Assembly (NCBI RefSeq): GCF_000026545.1
Contig: NC_011601.1
Source: Escherichia coli O127:H6 str. E2348/69
Lineage (GTDB): Bacteria > Pseudomonadota > Gammaproteobacteria > Enterobacterales > Enterobacteriaceae
DNA: 64,000 nt
Strand: one strand, 5' to 3'
The notes beneath the pieces were generated by a model. It was not told the origin of the DNA and searched no databases. It saw only the letters and a program-made list of their open reading frames with translations. Of this stretch, positions 28,005 through 48,622 are shown one piece after another; within the stretch, counting starts at the first letter, position 1; the number at the start of each line of letters is the position of its first letter. The translations under genes and the position numbers were made by a program.

Positions 28005-28114
28005 GTTTATTCTCTTTCTGAATATAAAAATGAACCCTCAACGCTTCCCTCAATGTTTCGGGAGCCATGCGGGTTCAATCATACACGGGAAGCGAGGCGC
28101 TTCCCATCACGTTA

Positions 28115-29233
28115 TTATTTTTCAACCTGCTGAACGTCAATTCGACGCGCTTCGTCCAGCTGACTGGCTTTCGCACGAATGCGTGCTTCCAGCTGGTCGA
28201 TCATATCGTTGTTGTCCAGACGGTCTTTGCGCACGCCATCTTCATAGAGGCCGCTTTTCTTGTTGCCGCCGGTGACGCCGAGTGTAGAAACCAGCGCCTC
28301 ACCAGGGCCATTCACCACGCAGCCGATAATCGAAACGTCCATCGGAGTGATGATATCTTCCAGGCGTTGCTCCAGCGCGTTAACCGTACCGATAACATCA
28401 AATTCCTGACGCGAACAGGTCGGGCAGGCGATGAAGTTGATCCCGCGCGAACGGATACGCAGCGATTTCAAAATATCGAAACCGACTTTGATCTCTTCGA
28501 CCGGATCGGCCGCCAGCGATACGCGCAGCGTGTCGCCGATGCCTTCAGACAGCAGCAGACCTAAACCAATAGCGGATTTTACTGCCCCGCTACGCGCACC
28601 ACCGGCTTCGGTGATCCCCAGATGTAGCGGCTGATCGATTTGTTTTGCCAGCAAACGATAAGACTCAACAGCGAGGAAGACGTCAGACGCTTTCACGCTG
28701 ACTTTGAACTGATCGAAGTTCAGGCGATCGAGATGATCAACATGACGCATGGCAGATTCCAGCAACGCCTGCGGCGTCGGTTCGCCATACTTTTCTTGCA
28801 GATCTTTTTCCAACGATCCGGCGTTAACGCCAATACGGATCGGAATGTTTTTATCGCGCGCACAGTCAACCACCATGCGAATACGCTCTTCATTACCGAT
28901 ATTGCCAGGGTTAATACGCAGACAATCGACGCCGTATTCCGCTACTTTCAGCGCAATGCGATAGTCGAAGTGGATGTCAGCCACCAGCGGCACGTTAACC
29001 TGCTGTTTGATGAGTTTGAACGCTTCTGCCGCGTCCATCGTCGGTACGGAGACACGGACGATATCAGCGCCAACACGTTCCAGCGCCTTGATTTGATTGA
29101 CCGTTGCTTCGACGTCTGTCGTACGCGTATTGGTCATGGACTGTACGGCGATGGGAGCACCATCGCCAATCGGCACATTCCCAACGTAAATACGTGTTGA
29201 TTTTCTACGTTGAATTGGAGCCTGGTTATGCAT
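28115..29233 (-). CDS. ispG: 4-hydroxy-3-methylbut-2-en-1-yl diphosphate synthase
   Basis: 372 aa; '[36 protein letters not shown]...' recognised as IspG. Confidence 0.95.
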
Positions 29234-39916: not shown

Positions 39917-40762
39917 ATGTCCACGACATGGTTTGTAGGAGCCGACTGGCTCGCCGAACATATTGATGACCCGGAAATTCAGATTATCGATGCCCGCATG
40001 GCGTCGCCTGGACAGGAAGATCGTAACGTTGCTCAGGAGTATCTGAATGGACATATTCCCGGCGCAGTGTTTTTTGATATCGAAGCGCTTTCTGATCACA
40101 CTTCCCCGCTTCCGCACATGCTGCCGCGCCCGGAAACGTTCGCCGTGGCGATGCGTGAATTAGGCGTTAACCAGGATAAGCACCTGATTGTCTATGACGA
40201 AGGTAATCTTTTCTCAGCCCCACGAGCATGGTGGATGCTGCGCACCTTTGGTGTAGAGAAAGTGTCGATTCTGGGTGGTGGACTTGCAGGCTGGCAGCGT
40301 GATGATCTGCTATTAGAGGAAGGCGCAGTAGAGCTGCCGGAAGGAGAGTTTAACGCCGCGTTTAATCCTGAAGCCGTGGTGAAAGTAACCGATGTATTAT
40401 TGGCAAGCCATGAAAATACGGCGCAAATTATTGATGCCCGCCCGGCTACACGTTTTAACGCAGAAGTTGATGAACCTCGCCCAGGTTTACGTCGCGGACA
40501 TATTCCCGGTGCATTGAACGTTCCGTGGACGGAACTGGTACGTGAAGGCGAACTAAAAACGACTGATGAACTGGATGCGATATTTTTTGGTCGCGGTGTC
40601 AGCTACGACAAACCAATTATCGTCAGCTGCGGTTCTGGTGTAACAGCAGCCGTGGTTTTGTTGGCACTTGCGACGCTGGATGTGCCAAACGTGAAACTGT
40701 ACGACGGCGCATGGAGTGAATGGGGCGCACGAGCAGATTTACCGGTTGAGCCAGTGAAATAA
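39917..40762 (+). CDS. sseA: 3-mercaptopyruvate sulfurtransferase
   Basis: Rhodanese active-site 'CGSGVTA'; start at internal Met 'MSTTWFVGADW' gives 281 aa. Confidence 0.9.
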   Translation: MSTTWFVGADWLAEHIDDPEIQIIDARMASPGQEDRNVAQEYLNGHIPGAVFFDIEALSDHTSPLPHMLPRPETFAVAMRELGVNQDKHLIVYDEGNLFSAPRAWWMLRTFGVEKVSILGGGLAGWQRDDLLLEEGAVELPEGEFNAAFNPEAVVKVTDVLLASHENTAQIIDARPATRFNAEVDEPRPGLRRGHIPGALNVPWTELVREGELKTTDELDAIFFGRGVSYDKPIIVSCGSGVTAAVVLLALATLDVPNVKLYDGAWSEWGARADLPVEPVK

Positions 40763-40780
40763 GCTTTATACAGGCAATAA

Positions 40781-40808
40781 AAAACCGCCGAATCTGGCGG
40801 TTTTTTAT
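40781..40808 (+). terminator. sseA intrinsic terminator
   Basis: Hairpin ccgccgaatctggcgg followed by tttttt. Confidence 0.65.
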
Positions 40809-40949
40809 TGCTGGTCTGGTTCGCGGCCTTTCCAGCAGGTTGTATTACCGTAGTAATGCAAGCGCGTCTCAGCGGACACAATACTCGCCAGTAACTCTCT
40901 TTTTGTCAAGTAAAAGAGAGTTATTATTGTTCTGTTAGTGTATTATCCA

Positions 40950-41256
40950 CTGCGGCCCTTTCCGCCGTCTCGCAAGCGGGCGCTGGCTTAAGGAAAGGAT
41001 GTTCCGCGACCGTTAGGGCAAGCGCGTCTCAGCGCTTGCTATCGCGGCAATATCGCCAGTGGTGCTGTCGTGATGCGGTCTTCGCATGGACCGCACAATG
41101 AAGATACGGTGCTTTTGTATCGTACTTATTGTTTCTGGTGCGCTGTTAACCGAGGTAAATAATAACCGGAGTCTCTCCGGCAACAATTTACTGGTGGTTA
41201 ACAACCTTCAGAACAGCAAGTAAGCCCGAATGCCGCCCTTTGGGGCGGCATGTTTT
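40950..41256 (+). ncRNA. ryfA: Candidate RyfA-like sRNA locus in the sseA-sseB intergenic region; boundaries approximate
   Basis: ~490-bp intergenic region with repeated motif 'gcaagcgcgtctcagcg' (at about 40858 and 41018) and a terminator hairpin gccgccc-ttt-ggggcggc at 41232-41249; placement of RyfA here is from memory. Confidence 0.3.
41098..41223 (+). CDS. Candidate 41-aa small hydrophobic protein (TimP-like toxin candidate), below the ORF-track cutoff
   Basis: Hand-translated: MKIRCFCIVLIVSGALLTEVNNNRSLSGNNLLVVNNLQNSK*; ends 9 nt before the terminator hairpin. Confidence 0.3.
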   Translation: MKIRCFCIVLIVSGALLTEVNNNRSLSGNNLLVVNNLQNSK

Positions 41257-42031
41257 AAATTATCCGGTTCTGTTTAAAGTCACGCAAAAAACCACCCCAG
41301 CGACGTTCATAGAATGGCGCAATATGTTCGGTAATAAAGTGGCTAATTCCTTTTTCCCCTTTTTTCACCTGACAAATATCGATGGGTTCATCGCCAGGTA
41401 ATGTATCGGTCGCTACACTTCCCGCAGCCTGAATAATTTCTTCGATATCACCATCGGCTTCAATGCCAATAAGTAAATTAGGCTGTGCCTCTTCGTTCTC
41501 TTTAATTGAACAAATAAAAGCACGCTTCACCGGCTTAATGGTTTTAAATAAGGTGGTAAGTGAATCAATCATTTGCGCTGGCGGCTCTGCGACCTCCGAT
41601 AATATCAGCGATTCACCGCCTTCCAGTACTTCCTGACTGCTCAGCGGATTCCCTTCTTCACCAATCAGCAAACTGATTTCACGCGGCATAAATTCTTTAC
41701 CGGTTGGCAGTTTGGCATTAAGGAAGAGCGTTTCGCCAAGGGTCATCTCAAACAATGTGCGAACAGGCATTACGACAAATGCCTGTTCGCCTTCAACCGC
41801 CTGTTGAAGTGCTTCTAACGAGGTGAAAAAAGGAATGACGCTGGTGCCGTCTTCTTTTTTCCAGTGCTGTAAATCAAGTGCGCTATCTTCAACCACAGCC
41901 TCGCCCTGTGCCGCCGTACCAGGCACCCAGACGGTGGATTCCAGTAGAGTACGGAAAAAGGCCGGGCGGTGCGCCGGTTCGGTTGCTGCTTTTTCCAGCA
42001 GGTCTTCAAGTTCGTTTTTTGTTTCGGACAT
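41255..42031 (-). CDS. sseB: Enhanced serine sensitivity protein SseB
   Basis: Recognised from sequence and synteny; start at internal Met 'MSETKNE'. Confidence 0.85.
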   Translation of the reverse strand: MSETKNELEDLLEKAATEPAHRPAFFRTLLESTVWVPGTAAQGEAVVEDSALDLQHWKKEDGTSVIPFFTSLEALQQAVEGEQAFVVMPVRTLFEMTLGETLFLNAKLPTGKEFMPREISLLIGEEGNPLSSQEVLEGGESLILSEVAEPPAQMIDSLTTLFKTIKPVKRAFICSIKENEEAQPNLLIGIEADGDIEEIIQAAGSVATDTLPGDEPIDICQVKKGEKGISHFITEHIAPFYERRWGGFLRDFKQNRII

Positions 42032-42064: not shown

Positions 42065-42170
42065 AGTGCCTGATGCGCTACGCTTATCAGGCCTACAAGG
42101 GAACCGCAATATATTGAATTTGCAATACTTTGTAGGCCGGATAAGGCATTTACGCCGCATCCGGCATATT
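42065..42170. repeat. REP/BIME element (two inverted REP units)
   Basis: 'gcctgatgcgctacgcttatcaggcctaca' and 'tgtaggccggataaggcatttacgccgcatccggca'. Confidence 0.8.
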
Positions 42171-48511: not shown

Positions 48512-48622
48512 TGCTCTATAAACTCCGTACATCACTCAATGCAAGGAACCAGGCTACCGGCTGGATGTACGACCGTGTTTACGGAGTGTTTAGCACTCCG
48601 GCCTGATTCTGAATTCTTTTTA

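Follow-up and report, generated by a model that had tools for sequence, protein, structure and literature searches.

The 64-kb stretch of DNA analysed here (the window), which E. coli E2348/69 matches at 100% identity, very probably carries between sseA and sseB that strain's version of timPR, an enterobacterial module resembling a type I toxin-antitoxin pair, as judged from its sequence. The content of this spacer, the ryfA/timP toxin gene and the divergent TimR RNA, has already been described; nothing in it is new, and current understanding of the module is unaltered. The spacer measures 492 bp between the stop codons of sseA (40762) and sseB (41255), matching the ~490 bp given by a first-pass annotation of this DNA. 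That annotation had named a "RyfA-like locus", which placed ryfA correctly but was too weakly worded, since ryfA itself is present: the RNA scores 317.7 bits against Rfam RF00126 (gathering score 80 bits; E = 4.7e-89) and covers model positions 1-296 of 296. The RefSeq record of E2348/69 annotates the ORF as timP (WP_001363539.1) and contains no timR; at the equivalent MG1655 locus timR (b4811), ryfA (b4440) and timP (b4812) are all annotated. The proposed resemblance to a TimP/TimR-type toxin and small RNA agrees with RefSeq timP, with the MG1655 annotation, and with the NCBIfam TimP and Rfam ryfA models. It agrees equally with the repeat described below, one copy of which lies at the TimR 5' end while the other is SL2, the published TimR-binding site (PMC11228461). 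The annotation had made its reading depend on conservation of the ORF and on the position of ryfA; the ORF is found in 17 of 17 loci and ryfA lies here.

Table 1. Features of the sseA-sseB spacer, in window coordinates.
Feature	Position	Strand	Basis or remark
Bidirectional intrinsic terminator, GCAATAAAAAACCGCC-N6-GGCGGTTTTTTATTGC	40774..40811	both	16-nt perfect inverted repeat
timR (TimR = RyfB, STnc2070), ~95 nt	about 40779..40873	-	homology to MG1655 b4811 and Salmonella TimR
TimR hairpin 2, GCUGG...CCAGC; loop contains GGAAAGGCCGC	40810..40836	-	nearly invariant loop
TimR hairpin 1, AUUAC-UACG-GUAAU	40844..40857	-	conserved, compensatory changes; ACGGU complementary to timP site 2
TimR seed (repeat copy 1), 5'-(C)GCUGAGACGCGCUUGC-3'	40858..40874	-	exact repeat, cofold pairing
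TimR promoter	40881..40909	-	-35 TTGACA 40909..40904, 17-nt spacer, -10 GAGTAT 40886..40881
Perfect 12-bp inverted repeat, TAACTCTCTTTT-N8-AAAAGAGAGTTA	40892..40923		brackets TimR -35, reaches timP -35 region
timP/ryfA -10 element, TATTAT	40941..40946	+	TAYNAT-like in all loci
ryfA RNA = timP mRNA, 305 nt	40952..41256	+	Rfam RF00126; fold z = -6.74
SL1, with pseudoknot site 1 CGCUGGC at 40981-40987	40958..40997	+	helices 96-100% paired, 14 sequences
Site 2, GACCGU	41008..41013	+	pairs with site 4, frees Shine-Dalgarno (role: PMC13000454)
SL2, GCAAGCGC-GUCUCA-GCGCUUGC, TimR-binding stem-loop	41018..41039	+	role: PMC11228461
SL3, with pseudoknot site 3 GCCAGUG at 41055-41061	41041..41074	+	alignment pairing
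SL4, GCGGUCU-UCGCAU-GGACCGC; site 4 = 41075-41080	41075..41094	+	role: PMC11228461, PMC13000454
timP CDS, MKIRCFCIVLIVSGALLTEVNNNRSLSGNNLLVVNNLQNSK, 41 aa + stop	41098..41223	+	ATG 41098, TAA 41221-41223
timP/ryfA intrinsic terminator	41230..41256	+	stem 41230-41251, ATGCCGCCC-TTTG-GGGCGGCAT, then GTTTT

The two RNAs are linked by the 17-nt sequence GCAAGCGCGTCTCAGCG, which occurs on the + strand in two exact copies, 40858-40874 and 41018-41034, as had been noted from the sequence. Even with up to two mismatches allowed, the 64-kb window contains just these 2, where 0.03 would be expected, and two or more copies arose in 0 of 100 shuffles; the match does not extend into the flanks. Copy 2 spans the 5' stem and loop of SL2 in the timP 5'UTR. 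The direct repeat exists because the 5' half and loop of SL2 recur, on the other strand, within timR, which makes TimR nt 1-16/17 a perfect complement of timP nt 67-83. This complementarity (40874..40858 with 41018-41034) is unbroken over 17 nt and ends 64 nt before AUG 41098, in line with the ~18 nt, over 60 nt upstream of the RBS, that define this pairing in timPR modules. The cofold minimum-free-energy structure contains a 16-bp duplex of TimR nt 1-16 with timP nt 67-82 (ddG -15.3 kcal/mol), together with five further intermolecular pairs (40847-40851 : 41009-41013).

The same pairing is seen across species. Long-fragment RNAduplex energies (-65 to -80 kcal/mol) were inflated and blurred the cognate ranking, because they ignore intramolecular structure and because the two genes are colinear copies, and we replaced them by a contiguous-helix count and by cofolding. 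The longest TimR-SL2 helix averages 16.4 Watson-Crick pairs for cognate partners against 7.8 for non-cognate ones (14 Enterobacterales loci, 182 non-cognate pairs). An exact repeat of at least 10 nt joins positions -75 to -97 upstream of ryfA to 5'UTR positions 66-73 in 12 of 17 Enterobacterales loci; its position is constant across those 12 and its sequence differs by lineage. On these alignments the TimR seed changes in step with its SL2 target from species to species, and the 17-nt repeat is, by the same evidence, the site where the TimR and timP RNAs pair, a role that the first-pass annotation had not spelled out. Consistent with this, the 18-nt TimR-timP pairing of Salmonella has been proved by compensatory mutants, together with inhibition of translation in vitro (PMC7667032).

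The boundaries of timR were taken over from MG1655 timR b4811 and from the Salmonella TimR in vitro transcript, so that the 5' end is placed by homology only, within 40872-40875 (to ~3 nt). For Salmonella, the TimR sequence and parts of timP were reconstructed from the oligos listed in PMC7667032. The comparison with Salmonella timPR and K-12 ryfA that the first-pass annotation had suggested bears out its reading: the candidate TimR is identical to the Salmonella TimR of Andresen et al. at 77 of 103 aligned columns (75%), and MG1655 timR, ryfA and timP are orthologous. The TimR consensus fold comprises the seed, hairpin 1, hairpin 2 and the terminator, with compensatory change at 8 pairs, and the single-sequence fold has z = -4.26. 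Hairpin 2 is near-invariant in Escherichia, Citrobacter, Superficieibacter, Yersinia, Rahnella, Erwinia and Salmonella. Both promoter hexamers are conserved in the 15-row alignment, and in Salmonella TTGACA-N17-GAGTAT likewise stands directly upstream of the TimR 5' end (oligo EHO-1349). A generic promoter scan, which demanded at least 4/6 matches in the -10 element, made no call at this promoter, because GAGTAT matches 3/6 consensus positions.

At its 3' end, TimR (-) shares its terminator with sseA (+), and all TimR candidates finish in this conserved hairpin, which shows compensatory changes; the MG1655 timR annotation stops at the equivalent A-run. The left edge of the earlier annotation, 40810, falls within this terminator. 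The 12-bp inverted repeat near the two promoters is found in both K-12 units, and a related repeat occurs in Salmonella. As expected of the sRNA gene of a timPR module, the predicted timR lies upstream of timP, diverges from it, does not overlap it and ends at an intrinsic terminator. TimR (40779-40873) and the timP mRNA (40952-41256) share no overlap, and the locus does not belong with the cis-antisense type I systems (hok/sok, ldr/rdl). By its sequence layout it works like the trans-encoded subclass (tisB/istR-1, zor/orz), with complementarity supplied by a separate copy of the repeat.

The 5' end of the ryfA/timP RNA may lie at 40954, by homology to Salmonella, where TATTAT sits 7 nt before timP +1 (oligos EHO-1348, EHO-1421). 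An alternative + strand promoter call, TTGTCA-16-TATTGT at 40903-40930, would start transcription ~15 nt upstream of the mapped 5' end; it was rejected because the conserved TATTAT fits the Salmonella and K-12 5' ends better. Downstream, SL1-SL4 are 95.9% paired overall in 14 sequences. The 7-bp stem of SL4 (41075-41081 / 41088-41094) is invariant and 100% paired in the same set, and its 3' strand holds, and so sequesters, the Shine-Dalgarno GGA (41088-41090). SL2 contains the "variable region" CGCGT, a region described in PMC5333039. The 9 nt that had been stated to separate the ORF from a strong terminator are counted from the last sense codon (6 nt from the stop codon), and the terminator T-run does overlap the sseB stop codon (41255-41257, minus strand), as claimed.

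Two long-range pairings in this leader are also preserved. The pseudoknot between sites 1 and 3 (40981-40987 with 41055-41061) forms 7/7 pairs in the window, and 100% of cells are paired in 14 sequences, with three pairs changed on both sides in compensatory fashion; sliding the partner by 1-3 columns left 29-70% paired. Sites 2 and 4 (GACCGU, 41008-41013, with GCGGUC, 41075-41080) form 6/6 pairs, including one G·U, and are 100% paired in 14 sequences, although covariation support is weak because these pairs hardly vary. For the site 1-2 pairing, which would lock the inactive conformer, the inferred register (pairs 33-61 to 37-57) is 94.3% paired overall and did not exceed its shuffle control; C36×A58 is unpaired in the window and in three other Escherichia rows with A58 (two a-type, two c-type).

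The 41-codon plus-strand ORF reported earlier is RefSeq timP. Its product scores 84.2 bits against NCBIfam NF040796 toxic_TimP (curated cutoff 45 bits), with residues 1-39 on profile positions 1-39 of 40; Pfam has no family for TimP. All 17 of 17 loci, from seven genera, preserve a frame of 38-42 aa that starts at an invariant AUG, with indels in multiples of three. The N-terminus, MKIR followed by CFCIVLIVSGALL, is predicted to form a signal-anchor-like hydrophobic segment (mean Kyte-Doolittle values: residues 5-18, 2.61; residues 19-41, -0.80). Its pattern MK(I)R-x-x-CI-x-L-x-V-x-G is conserved in the 17 loci, more so than the C-terminus, and the C-terminal half is fast-evolving (non-synonymous differences within Escherichia affect 2-6 codons, synonymous ones 0-3). 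A 45-aa version starting at the in-frame ATG 41086, used in PMC8205139, was rejected as the native start because this codon lies inside SL4 and is AAG in Rahnella and Erwinia, and because the NCBIfam profile begins at MKIR. The toxicity and inner-membrane location of Salmonella TimP have been demonstrated (PMC7667032); evidence for TimP translation and toxicity so far comes from Salmonella, and timR deletion in APEC had minimal effect (PMC13188913).

These data allow us to propose how the locus would operate in E2348/69. The + strand would yield a ~305-nt ryfA/timP mRNA encoding a 41-aa, signal-anchored inner-membrane TimP, and a divergent promoter ~80 bp upstream is predicted to drive the ~95-nt TimR on the minus strand, ending at the sseA terminator read backwards. 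[quoted passage not shown] TimR would bind the SL2 loop of the active conformer, melt SL2 and prevent the pseudoknot, blocking translation, so that TimP synthesis should be confined to conditions in which the level of TimR drops relative to that of timP mRNA. PMC11228461 describes the Salmonella pseudoknot and how TimR disrupts it, and the site 1-4 switch is treated in PMC13000454; in Salmonella, timP translation is repressed by TimR, and the mRNA needs no nuclease processing to be active (PMC7667032, PMC11228461). TimR expression, translational repression and membrane toxicity in E2348/69 would be expected from these Salmonella experiments.

TimR might also make contacts with timP mRNA outside the published SL2 site, although we consider this unlikely. 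One candidate is the nearly invariant TimR hairpin-2 loop GGAAAGGCCGC (40833..40823, minus), which could pair with the timP 5' extreme and the lower SL1 strand GCGGCC(C)UUUCC (40952-40963) in an 11-bp helix interrupted by one bulge; translation depends on the lower SL1 stem. The other, in this allele, is TimR ACGGU (40851..40847) with site 2 ACCGU (41009-41013), which has an equivalent of 5-6 bp in Salmonella, Citrobacter and Yersinia; its target, site 2, has to base-pair with SL4 for the Shine-Dalgarno sequence to be released. If real, either contact would directly explain how TimR at SL2 dismantles the pseudoknot, a question from the 2024 and 2026 papers, and would offer an alternative reading of the TimR-induced protection of site 2 that the C57G mutant loses.

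Among the closest known systems is timP/TimR of Salmonella Typhimurium (formerly ryfA/STnc2070; Andresen 2020, Eleftheraki 2024, 2026). It too adjoins sseB downstream of sseA as a divergent, non-overlapping gene pair, with the same TimR promoter, a TimR of the similarity given above and an N-terminal signal-like segment in TimP. The seed and SL2 are, however, entirely different (GCAAGCGCGUCUCAGCG here, CGCAGGCACACCGUAG-like there; 17 nt against 18 nt), and Salmonella TimP has 38 aa rather than 41. Unlike Salmonella TimP, the window protein has a divergent, Asn-rich C-terminus without an Ala-X-Ala-like site. STM2534 lies between sseA and the module in Salmonella and is missing here, and in the present allele the site 1-2 pairing has a C·A mismatch. 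Functional assays were done in Salmonella, whereas the E2348/69 allele is known from sequence. Protein searches for Salmonella TimP returned only Escherichia/Shigella proteins (with two fragments labelled Klebsiella) and Citrobacter proteins. A genome-contig scan with the SL4 pattern GCGGTCNNNGCANNGACCGCAC gave at least 120 matches, mostly in unrelated high-GC genomes; among the matches listed were 15 Enterobacterales loci, none from Salmonella. The scan was unspecific because the pattern is too GC-rich and palindromic.

Shigella dysenteriae ryfA1/ryfB1 (Fris 2017) represents the same locus and RNAs, with a ~100-nt divergent RyfB whose ~17 nt of complementarity overlap the variable region (PMC5333039). 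The window carries the "ryfA1-like" variable region CGCGT, which Fris et al. linked to enteropathogens, and E2348/69 is itself EPEC. Whereas the window has a single unit, S. dysenteriae carries two complete ones in tandem (ryfA1/ryfB1 and ryfA2/ryfB2), and Fris et al. read RyfA/RyfB as one sRNA regulating another (PMC5333039). K-12 MG1655 has the orthologous sseA-sseB locus, with a TimP differing at 2 of 41 residues and the same 5'UTR structure, but it contains ~325 extra bp, in which the first unit consists of a cognate b-type TimR, a truncated ryfA' and the Rfam 'IS128' region. The TimR copy of its second unit is unannotated and a-type, like that of the window. Because K-12 SL2 differs (GCAGGUGUUUCACAGCG, variable region TGTTT), K-12 timP pairs with the distal TimR (17 Watson-Crick pairs) and not with the adjacent one (8).

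More distantly, the trans-encoded type I pairs tisB/istR-1, shoB/ohsC, zorO/orzO and dinQ/agrB share with timPR the divergent, non-overlapping genes, a perfect complementarity of ~17-20 nt derived from a DNA direct repeat, a small hydrophobic membrane toxin and an antitoxin that binds far upstream of a sequestered ribosome-binding site. They have no sequence homology to timPR. According to the Salmonella work they also differ in that timP mRNA is activated by a structural switch rather than by nuclease processing, and in that TimP carries a Sec-type signal sequence in place of a simple transmembrane helix.

Several other calls in the spacer were set aside. Minus-strand Rfam matches at 40730-40887 (AgrB at 28.9 bits, RNAI, rimP leader) stay under their gathering scores and owe their signal to the terminator hairpin, and a match to IS128 (29 bits against 80) is the terminator shared with the K-12 inter-unit region. 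Nor was there support for the spacer's small frames or for two minus-strand ORFs, 41013-41204 (63 aa) and 40603-40881 (92 aa).

A different account of the locus is that the main, or an additional, role of E. coli RyfA is that of a trans-acting sRNA in stress resistance, fimbriae, ompC and virulence, with TimR/RyfB as its partner or antagonist, the ORF irrelevant to those roles, and the 17-nt pairing titrating or destabilising RyfA. ORF-destroyed ryfA alleles complement all ryfA-mutant phenotypes in UPEC CFT073 (PMC8205139). In S. dysenteriae RyfB1 lowers RyfA1 levels, overproduced RyfA1 abolishes ompC mRNA, and a RyfA1 protein was looked for with none detected (PMC5333039); according to the title of PMC10664665, RyfA is bound by ProQ. 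An sRNA acting in trans nevertheless leaves unexplained why a 38-42-codon frame with an invariant AUG persists in 17 of 17 loci from seven genera, and why the fully conserved SL4 and the site 2-4 and 1-3 switch surround that AUG. We think this account somewhat unlikely; the two roles are not mutually exclusive, and a dual-function RNA would be compatible with the timPR explanation.

The repeat could instead be a functionless remnant of a local duplication, the TimR region being a shortened copy of the ryfA 5' part and the ORF a chance frame in a structured RNA. Such an origin would fit the colinearity of timR with a compressed ryfA nt 1-83 (GCGGCC(C)TTTCC, then ACCGT, then the 17-mer), and K-12 demonstrates that the unit can duplicate in tandem. 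Yet the 17-mer is exact though its flanks have diverged, and in other species the two sites differ in sequence from those here, match each other and occupy the same positions. A conserved promoter moreover reads the upstream copy in antisense, the compensatory mutagenesis in Salmonella proves the pairing functional (PMC7667032), and the open frame has been kept in ~6 independent lineages, where we estimate the chance for 40 codons at ~0.15 per lineage. A remnant without function is already contradicted by these observations, and we judge it exceedingly improbable.

Read as timPR, the whole sseA-sseB spacer is accounted for by a single known module, in which timR (~40779-40873, -) is the only unannotated gene. 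The module is a model of toxin control by an RNA structural switch, not by RNA processing, and RyfA has also been tied to virulence phenotypes in UPEC, APEC and Shigella. E2348/69 represents the commonest E. coli configuration, a single unit whose a-type TimR and SL2 are perfectly matched; SL2-a occurs in 2,980 of 5,426 complete genomes. Because K-12 timP adjoins a second, non-cognate TimR, E2348/69 offers a cleaner background than K-12 for studying TimP production and toxicity in E. coli.

The stop codons of sseA (40762) and sseB (41255-41257, minus strand) bound a 492-bp spacer in the gene order yfhM, sseA, spacer, sseB, pepB, and a 541-bp query from the window was 100% identical to E. coli E2348/69. 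The Rfam ryfA model RF00126 matched 40952-41256 end to end with 317.7 bits (gathering score 80). NCBIfam NF040796 matched the product of the small ORF with 84.2 bits (cutoff 45), Pfam having no family for TimP, and the orthologous MG1655 locus is annotated with timR (b4811), ryfA (b4440) and timP (b4812). These data confirm the likeness to ryfA and TimP/TimR proposed by the first-pass annotation, whose other elements, an exact 17-nt plus-strand repeat, a 41-codon hydrophobic ORF and a terminator overlapping the sseB stop, are likewise genuine and lie where it placed them. The locus is an already described and annotated module, correctly recognised from raw sequence, and is not novel; what remains of value is the timR gene, missing from the E2348/69 record, and a few testable details of TimR action.

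The two exact copies of the 17-mer (GCAAGCGCGTCTCAGCG) are the only ones with up to two mismatches in the 64 kb (0.03 expected), and none of 100 shuffle controls gave two copies. Copy 2 falls in SL2, a stem-loop of the timP 5'UTR that in Salmonella is the site of TimR binding (PMC11228461). Several features mark copy 1 (minus-strand reading 5'-CGCUGAGACGCGCUUGC-3') as the putative 5' end of the gene for this antitoxin sRNA. Both hexamers of the TimR promoter are conserved in a 15-row alignment from six genera, and Salmonella TimR carries an identical TTGACA-N17-GAGTAT right before its 5' end (oligo EHO-1349). RNAalifold on TimR gave 28 pairs, eight with compensatory changes. Alignment with the Salmonella transcript, reconstructed from oligos EHO-1419 and EHO-1420, resulted in 77 identical columns out of 103 and placed the Salmonella 5' end at 40872. 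Perfect complementarity joins TimR nt 1-16/17 to timP nt 67-83 and stops 64 nt 5' of the AUG, in agreement with the published pairing, an 18-nt stretch >60 nt away from the RBS. Given that copy 2 is SL2 and copy 1 the TimR 5' end, the 'direct repeat' is the trace left in the DNA by an antisense pair encoded in trans. In Yersinia similis (locus L070, 4361-4467), Rfam calls Ysr224 on the plus strand with 133.9 bits, 87 nt upstream of ryfA, the expected place for TimR; this hit may represent TimR of Yersinia, named differently or called on the opposite strand.

Features of the timR-timP locus in the window (SL, stem-loop; sites 1-4, switch elements; SD, Shine-Dalgarno sequence)
Feature	Position	Strand	Details
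Repeat copy 1	40858-40874	+	Exact 17-mer
Repeat copy 2	41018-41034	+	Exact 17-mer; SL2 5' strand (41018-41025), loop (41026-41031) and first 3 nt of 3' strand
TimR promoter	-10, 40886..40881; -35, 40909..40904	-	GAGTAT and TTGACA, 17-nt spacer; directly upstream of seed
TimR 3' of seed		-	Two hairpins, then sseA terminator reversed (40811..40774)
TimR gene (putative)	about 40873 to 40779	-	~95 nt; MG1655 timR boundaries transferred
SL1	40958-40997
Site 1	40981-40987
Site 2	41008-41013
SL2	41018-41039	+	timP 5'UTR; GCAAGCGC-GUCUCA-GCGCUUGC
SL3	41041-41074
Site 3	41055-41061
SL4	41075-41094
Site 4	41075-41080
SD (GGA)	41088-41090
timP ORF	ATG 41098 to TAA 41221-41223	+
timP/ryfA terminator	41230-41251	+	9-bp GC-rich hairpin, then GTTTT; T-run overlaps sseB stop

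Across the compared ryfA loci, an exact repeat of at least 10 nt joins the region -75 to -97 with 5'UTR positions 66-73 in 12 of 17. At these same positions its sequence differs by lineage, reading CACCCCACAGTG in c-type E. coli, CAGGCACACCTCAGTG in Citrobacter, GCACACTCTCGTGCT in Y. aldovae, AAGCACGACCTCGTGC in Erwinia and GCGCAGACTAGCG in Rahnella (a-, b- and c-type denote SL2/TimR seed versions, the window being a-type and K-12 b-type). When scored by the Watson-Crick pairs within the longest contiguous TimR/SL2 helix, cognate partners averaged 16.4 pairs in contrast to 7.8 for 182 non-cognate combinations, where high scores came from sister species only. RNAcofold of window TimR with timP nt 1-160 placed a 16-bp duplex in the minimum-free-energy structure (ddG -15.3 kcal/mol), independently matching Fig. 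8B of Andresen et al. Both this covariation of TimR and SL2 and published compensatory mutagenesis contradict the alternative that the repeat is left over from a duplication and has no function.

We mapped the window on the Salmonella 5'UTR model, whose numbering equals window position minus 2 (oligo EHO-1421). In a 14-sequence alignment SL1-SL4 were 95.9% paired, against 38-47% with slid partners. The pseudoknot between sites 1 and 3 was 100% paired, with both sides changed in three pairs, and the site 2-4 helix was 100% paired but nearly invariant. At the level of sequence and comparison, the predicted TimR-SL2 pairing and the switch elements are present in E2348/69. Pairing of the site 1-2 'inactive lock', in a register inferred from published mutants, was not above controls, and the window allele carries a C36×A58 mismatch in it. 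In this helix (40984-40988 / 41008-41012; columns 35-39 / 59-63 of the 5'UTR alignment A1), a- and c-type Escherichia share the C·A mismatch; K-12, Citrobacter, Yersinia, Rahnella and Erwinia keep the pair. The window allele may thus have a less stable inactive conformer.

By homology with the Salmonella experiments (PMC7667032, PMC11228461, PMC13000454), full-length timP mRNA would first adopt an inactive fold that locks the SD within SL4. Rearrangement would then form the 1-3 pseudoknot and allow site 2 to invade SL4, exposing the SD. TimR would bind the SL2 loop of this active form, melting SL2 and preventing the pseudoknot, so that no TimP is made. TimP itself would be an uncleaved, signal-anchored inner-membrane peptide, overproduction of which would lead to membrane leakage. 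For E2348/69, we infer TimR transcription, repression and toxicity by analogy with Salmonella.

Among the matches listed, we compared 17 ryfA loci from Escherichia, Citrobacter, Superficieibacter, Yersinia, Rahnella and Erwinia. All 17 hold a 38-42-codon frame from an invariant AUG, ending 24-35 nt from the RNA 3' end. The TimP N-terminus is conserved and hydrophobic (MK(I)R-x-x-CIVL-x-V-x-GALL), and the C-terminus is variable and Asn- and Ser-rich. An upstream in-frame ATG (41086-41088), giving 45 aa, was rejected: Rahnella and Erwinia have AAG in its place, and it sits in the SL4 loop / 3' strand. We therefore place the timP start at 41098. The 45-aa version of the peptide used in PMC8205139 begins at this upstream ATG.

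A real caveat is the view, taken in E. coli and Shigella studies, of RyfA as a regulatory sRNA. A CFT073 ryfA mutant was complemented by alleles with the ORF destroyed (PMC8205139), and Fris et al. saw no peptide (PMC5333039); however, a regulatory sRNA leaves unexplained both the conservation of the frame and the conserved apparatus for SD control. The toxin and sRNA views are reconciled most economically by an RNA with both functions.

In strain 29A20CPO013 (L124, 933-1834) timP is interrupted by IS1A, leaving two annotated pseudogene fragments; the toxin gene can therefore be lost in natural isolates. In strain P276M (L128, 1528-1900) the seed region of the proximal TimR-like copy (…GCAGTAATGTGCTGTCTCGAAGCGG…) is of a fourth type that differs greatly from the others; the annotation lacks timP, the 3' end of ryfA is apparently shortened and sseB is a pseudogene with a frameshift.

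Fris et al. described a 5-nt 'variable region' of ryfA in four versions (CACCC, CCCCC, CGCGT, TGTTT), overlapped by the RyfB (TimR) complementarity (PMC5333039). The window has CGCGT, their 'ryfA1-like', enteropathogen-associated class (PMC5333039). Of 5,426 complete E. coli genomes, 2,980 carry a-type SL2, 1,975 b-type SL2 and 4,534 an a-type TimR gene. BLAST counts (4,534 minus 2,980) thus give a K-12-type layout in ~1,550 of the 5,426, in line with 1,565 extra match places in the E2348/69 query search. This layout is a tandem, partly decayed unit duplication (L002 1003-1512; L129, MG1655, 257-755; L125), in the order sseA, TimR-b, truncated ryfA' fused to the Rfam 'IS128' region, TimR-a, timP-b. 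As this order puts TimR-a next to timP-b, the TimR adjoining timP is non-cognate: timP-b forms 8 Watson-Crick pairs with adjacent TimR-a and 17 with distal TimR-b ~400 bp off. The proximal K-12 TimR-a, directly upstream of the b-type timP, has the same seed as the window's and is unannotated, the MG1655 annotation covering the distal copy only (timR b4811).

The cofold minimum-free-energy structure held five further pairs, between TimR ACGGU (40847-40851, minus strand) and site 2 ACCGU (41009-41013), whose pairing with SL4 is required for SD release. Equivalents of 5-6 bp are possible in Salmonella, Citrobacter and Yersinia and were absent from Rahnella, Erwinia and b- and c-type E. coli in the helix comparison. 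The TimR hairpin-2 loop GGAAAGGCCGC (40823-40833, minus strand) is nearly invariant in seven genera, from Escherichia to Erwinia and including Salmonella, and is complementary to timP nt 1-12 (40952-40963; 5' end and lower SL1 strand) over 11 bp with a 1-nt bulge. The cited timPR/RyfA literature makes no mention of this complementarity. Either the loop or the site 2 complementarity could reflect an additional TimR-timP contact, but both may equally be left over from the duplication that gave rise to timR.

A perfect 12-bp inverted repeat, TAACTCTCTTTT-N8-AAAAGAGAGTTA (40892-40903 / 40912-40923), has the TimR -35 (TTGACA) between its arms and extends with the right arm into the timP -35 region. 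Both K-12 units carry this inverted repeat, and the Salmonella TimR promoter spacer has a related one, CTCCCTT-AAAA-GGGAG (CTCCCTTAAAAGGGAG); the repeat could serve as a shared operator or form a cruciform. Elsewhere in the window, the sseB-pepB spacer holds a borderline Rfam ES036 (CssrF) sRNA (42089-42131, minus strand; 38.6 bits, gathering score 37.6). Two known elements on the minus strand, sroE (28024-28115, 116.6 bits) and the iscRS stability element (48513-48622, 136.5 bits), are ordinary for the region.
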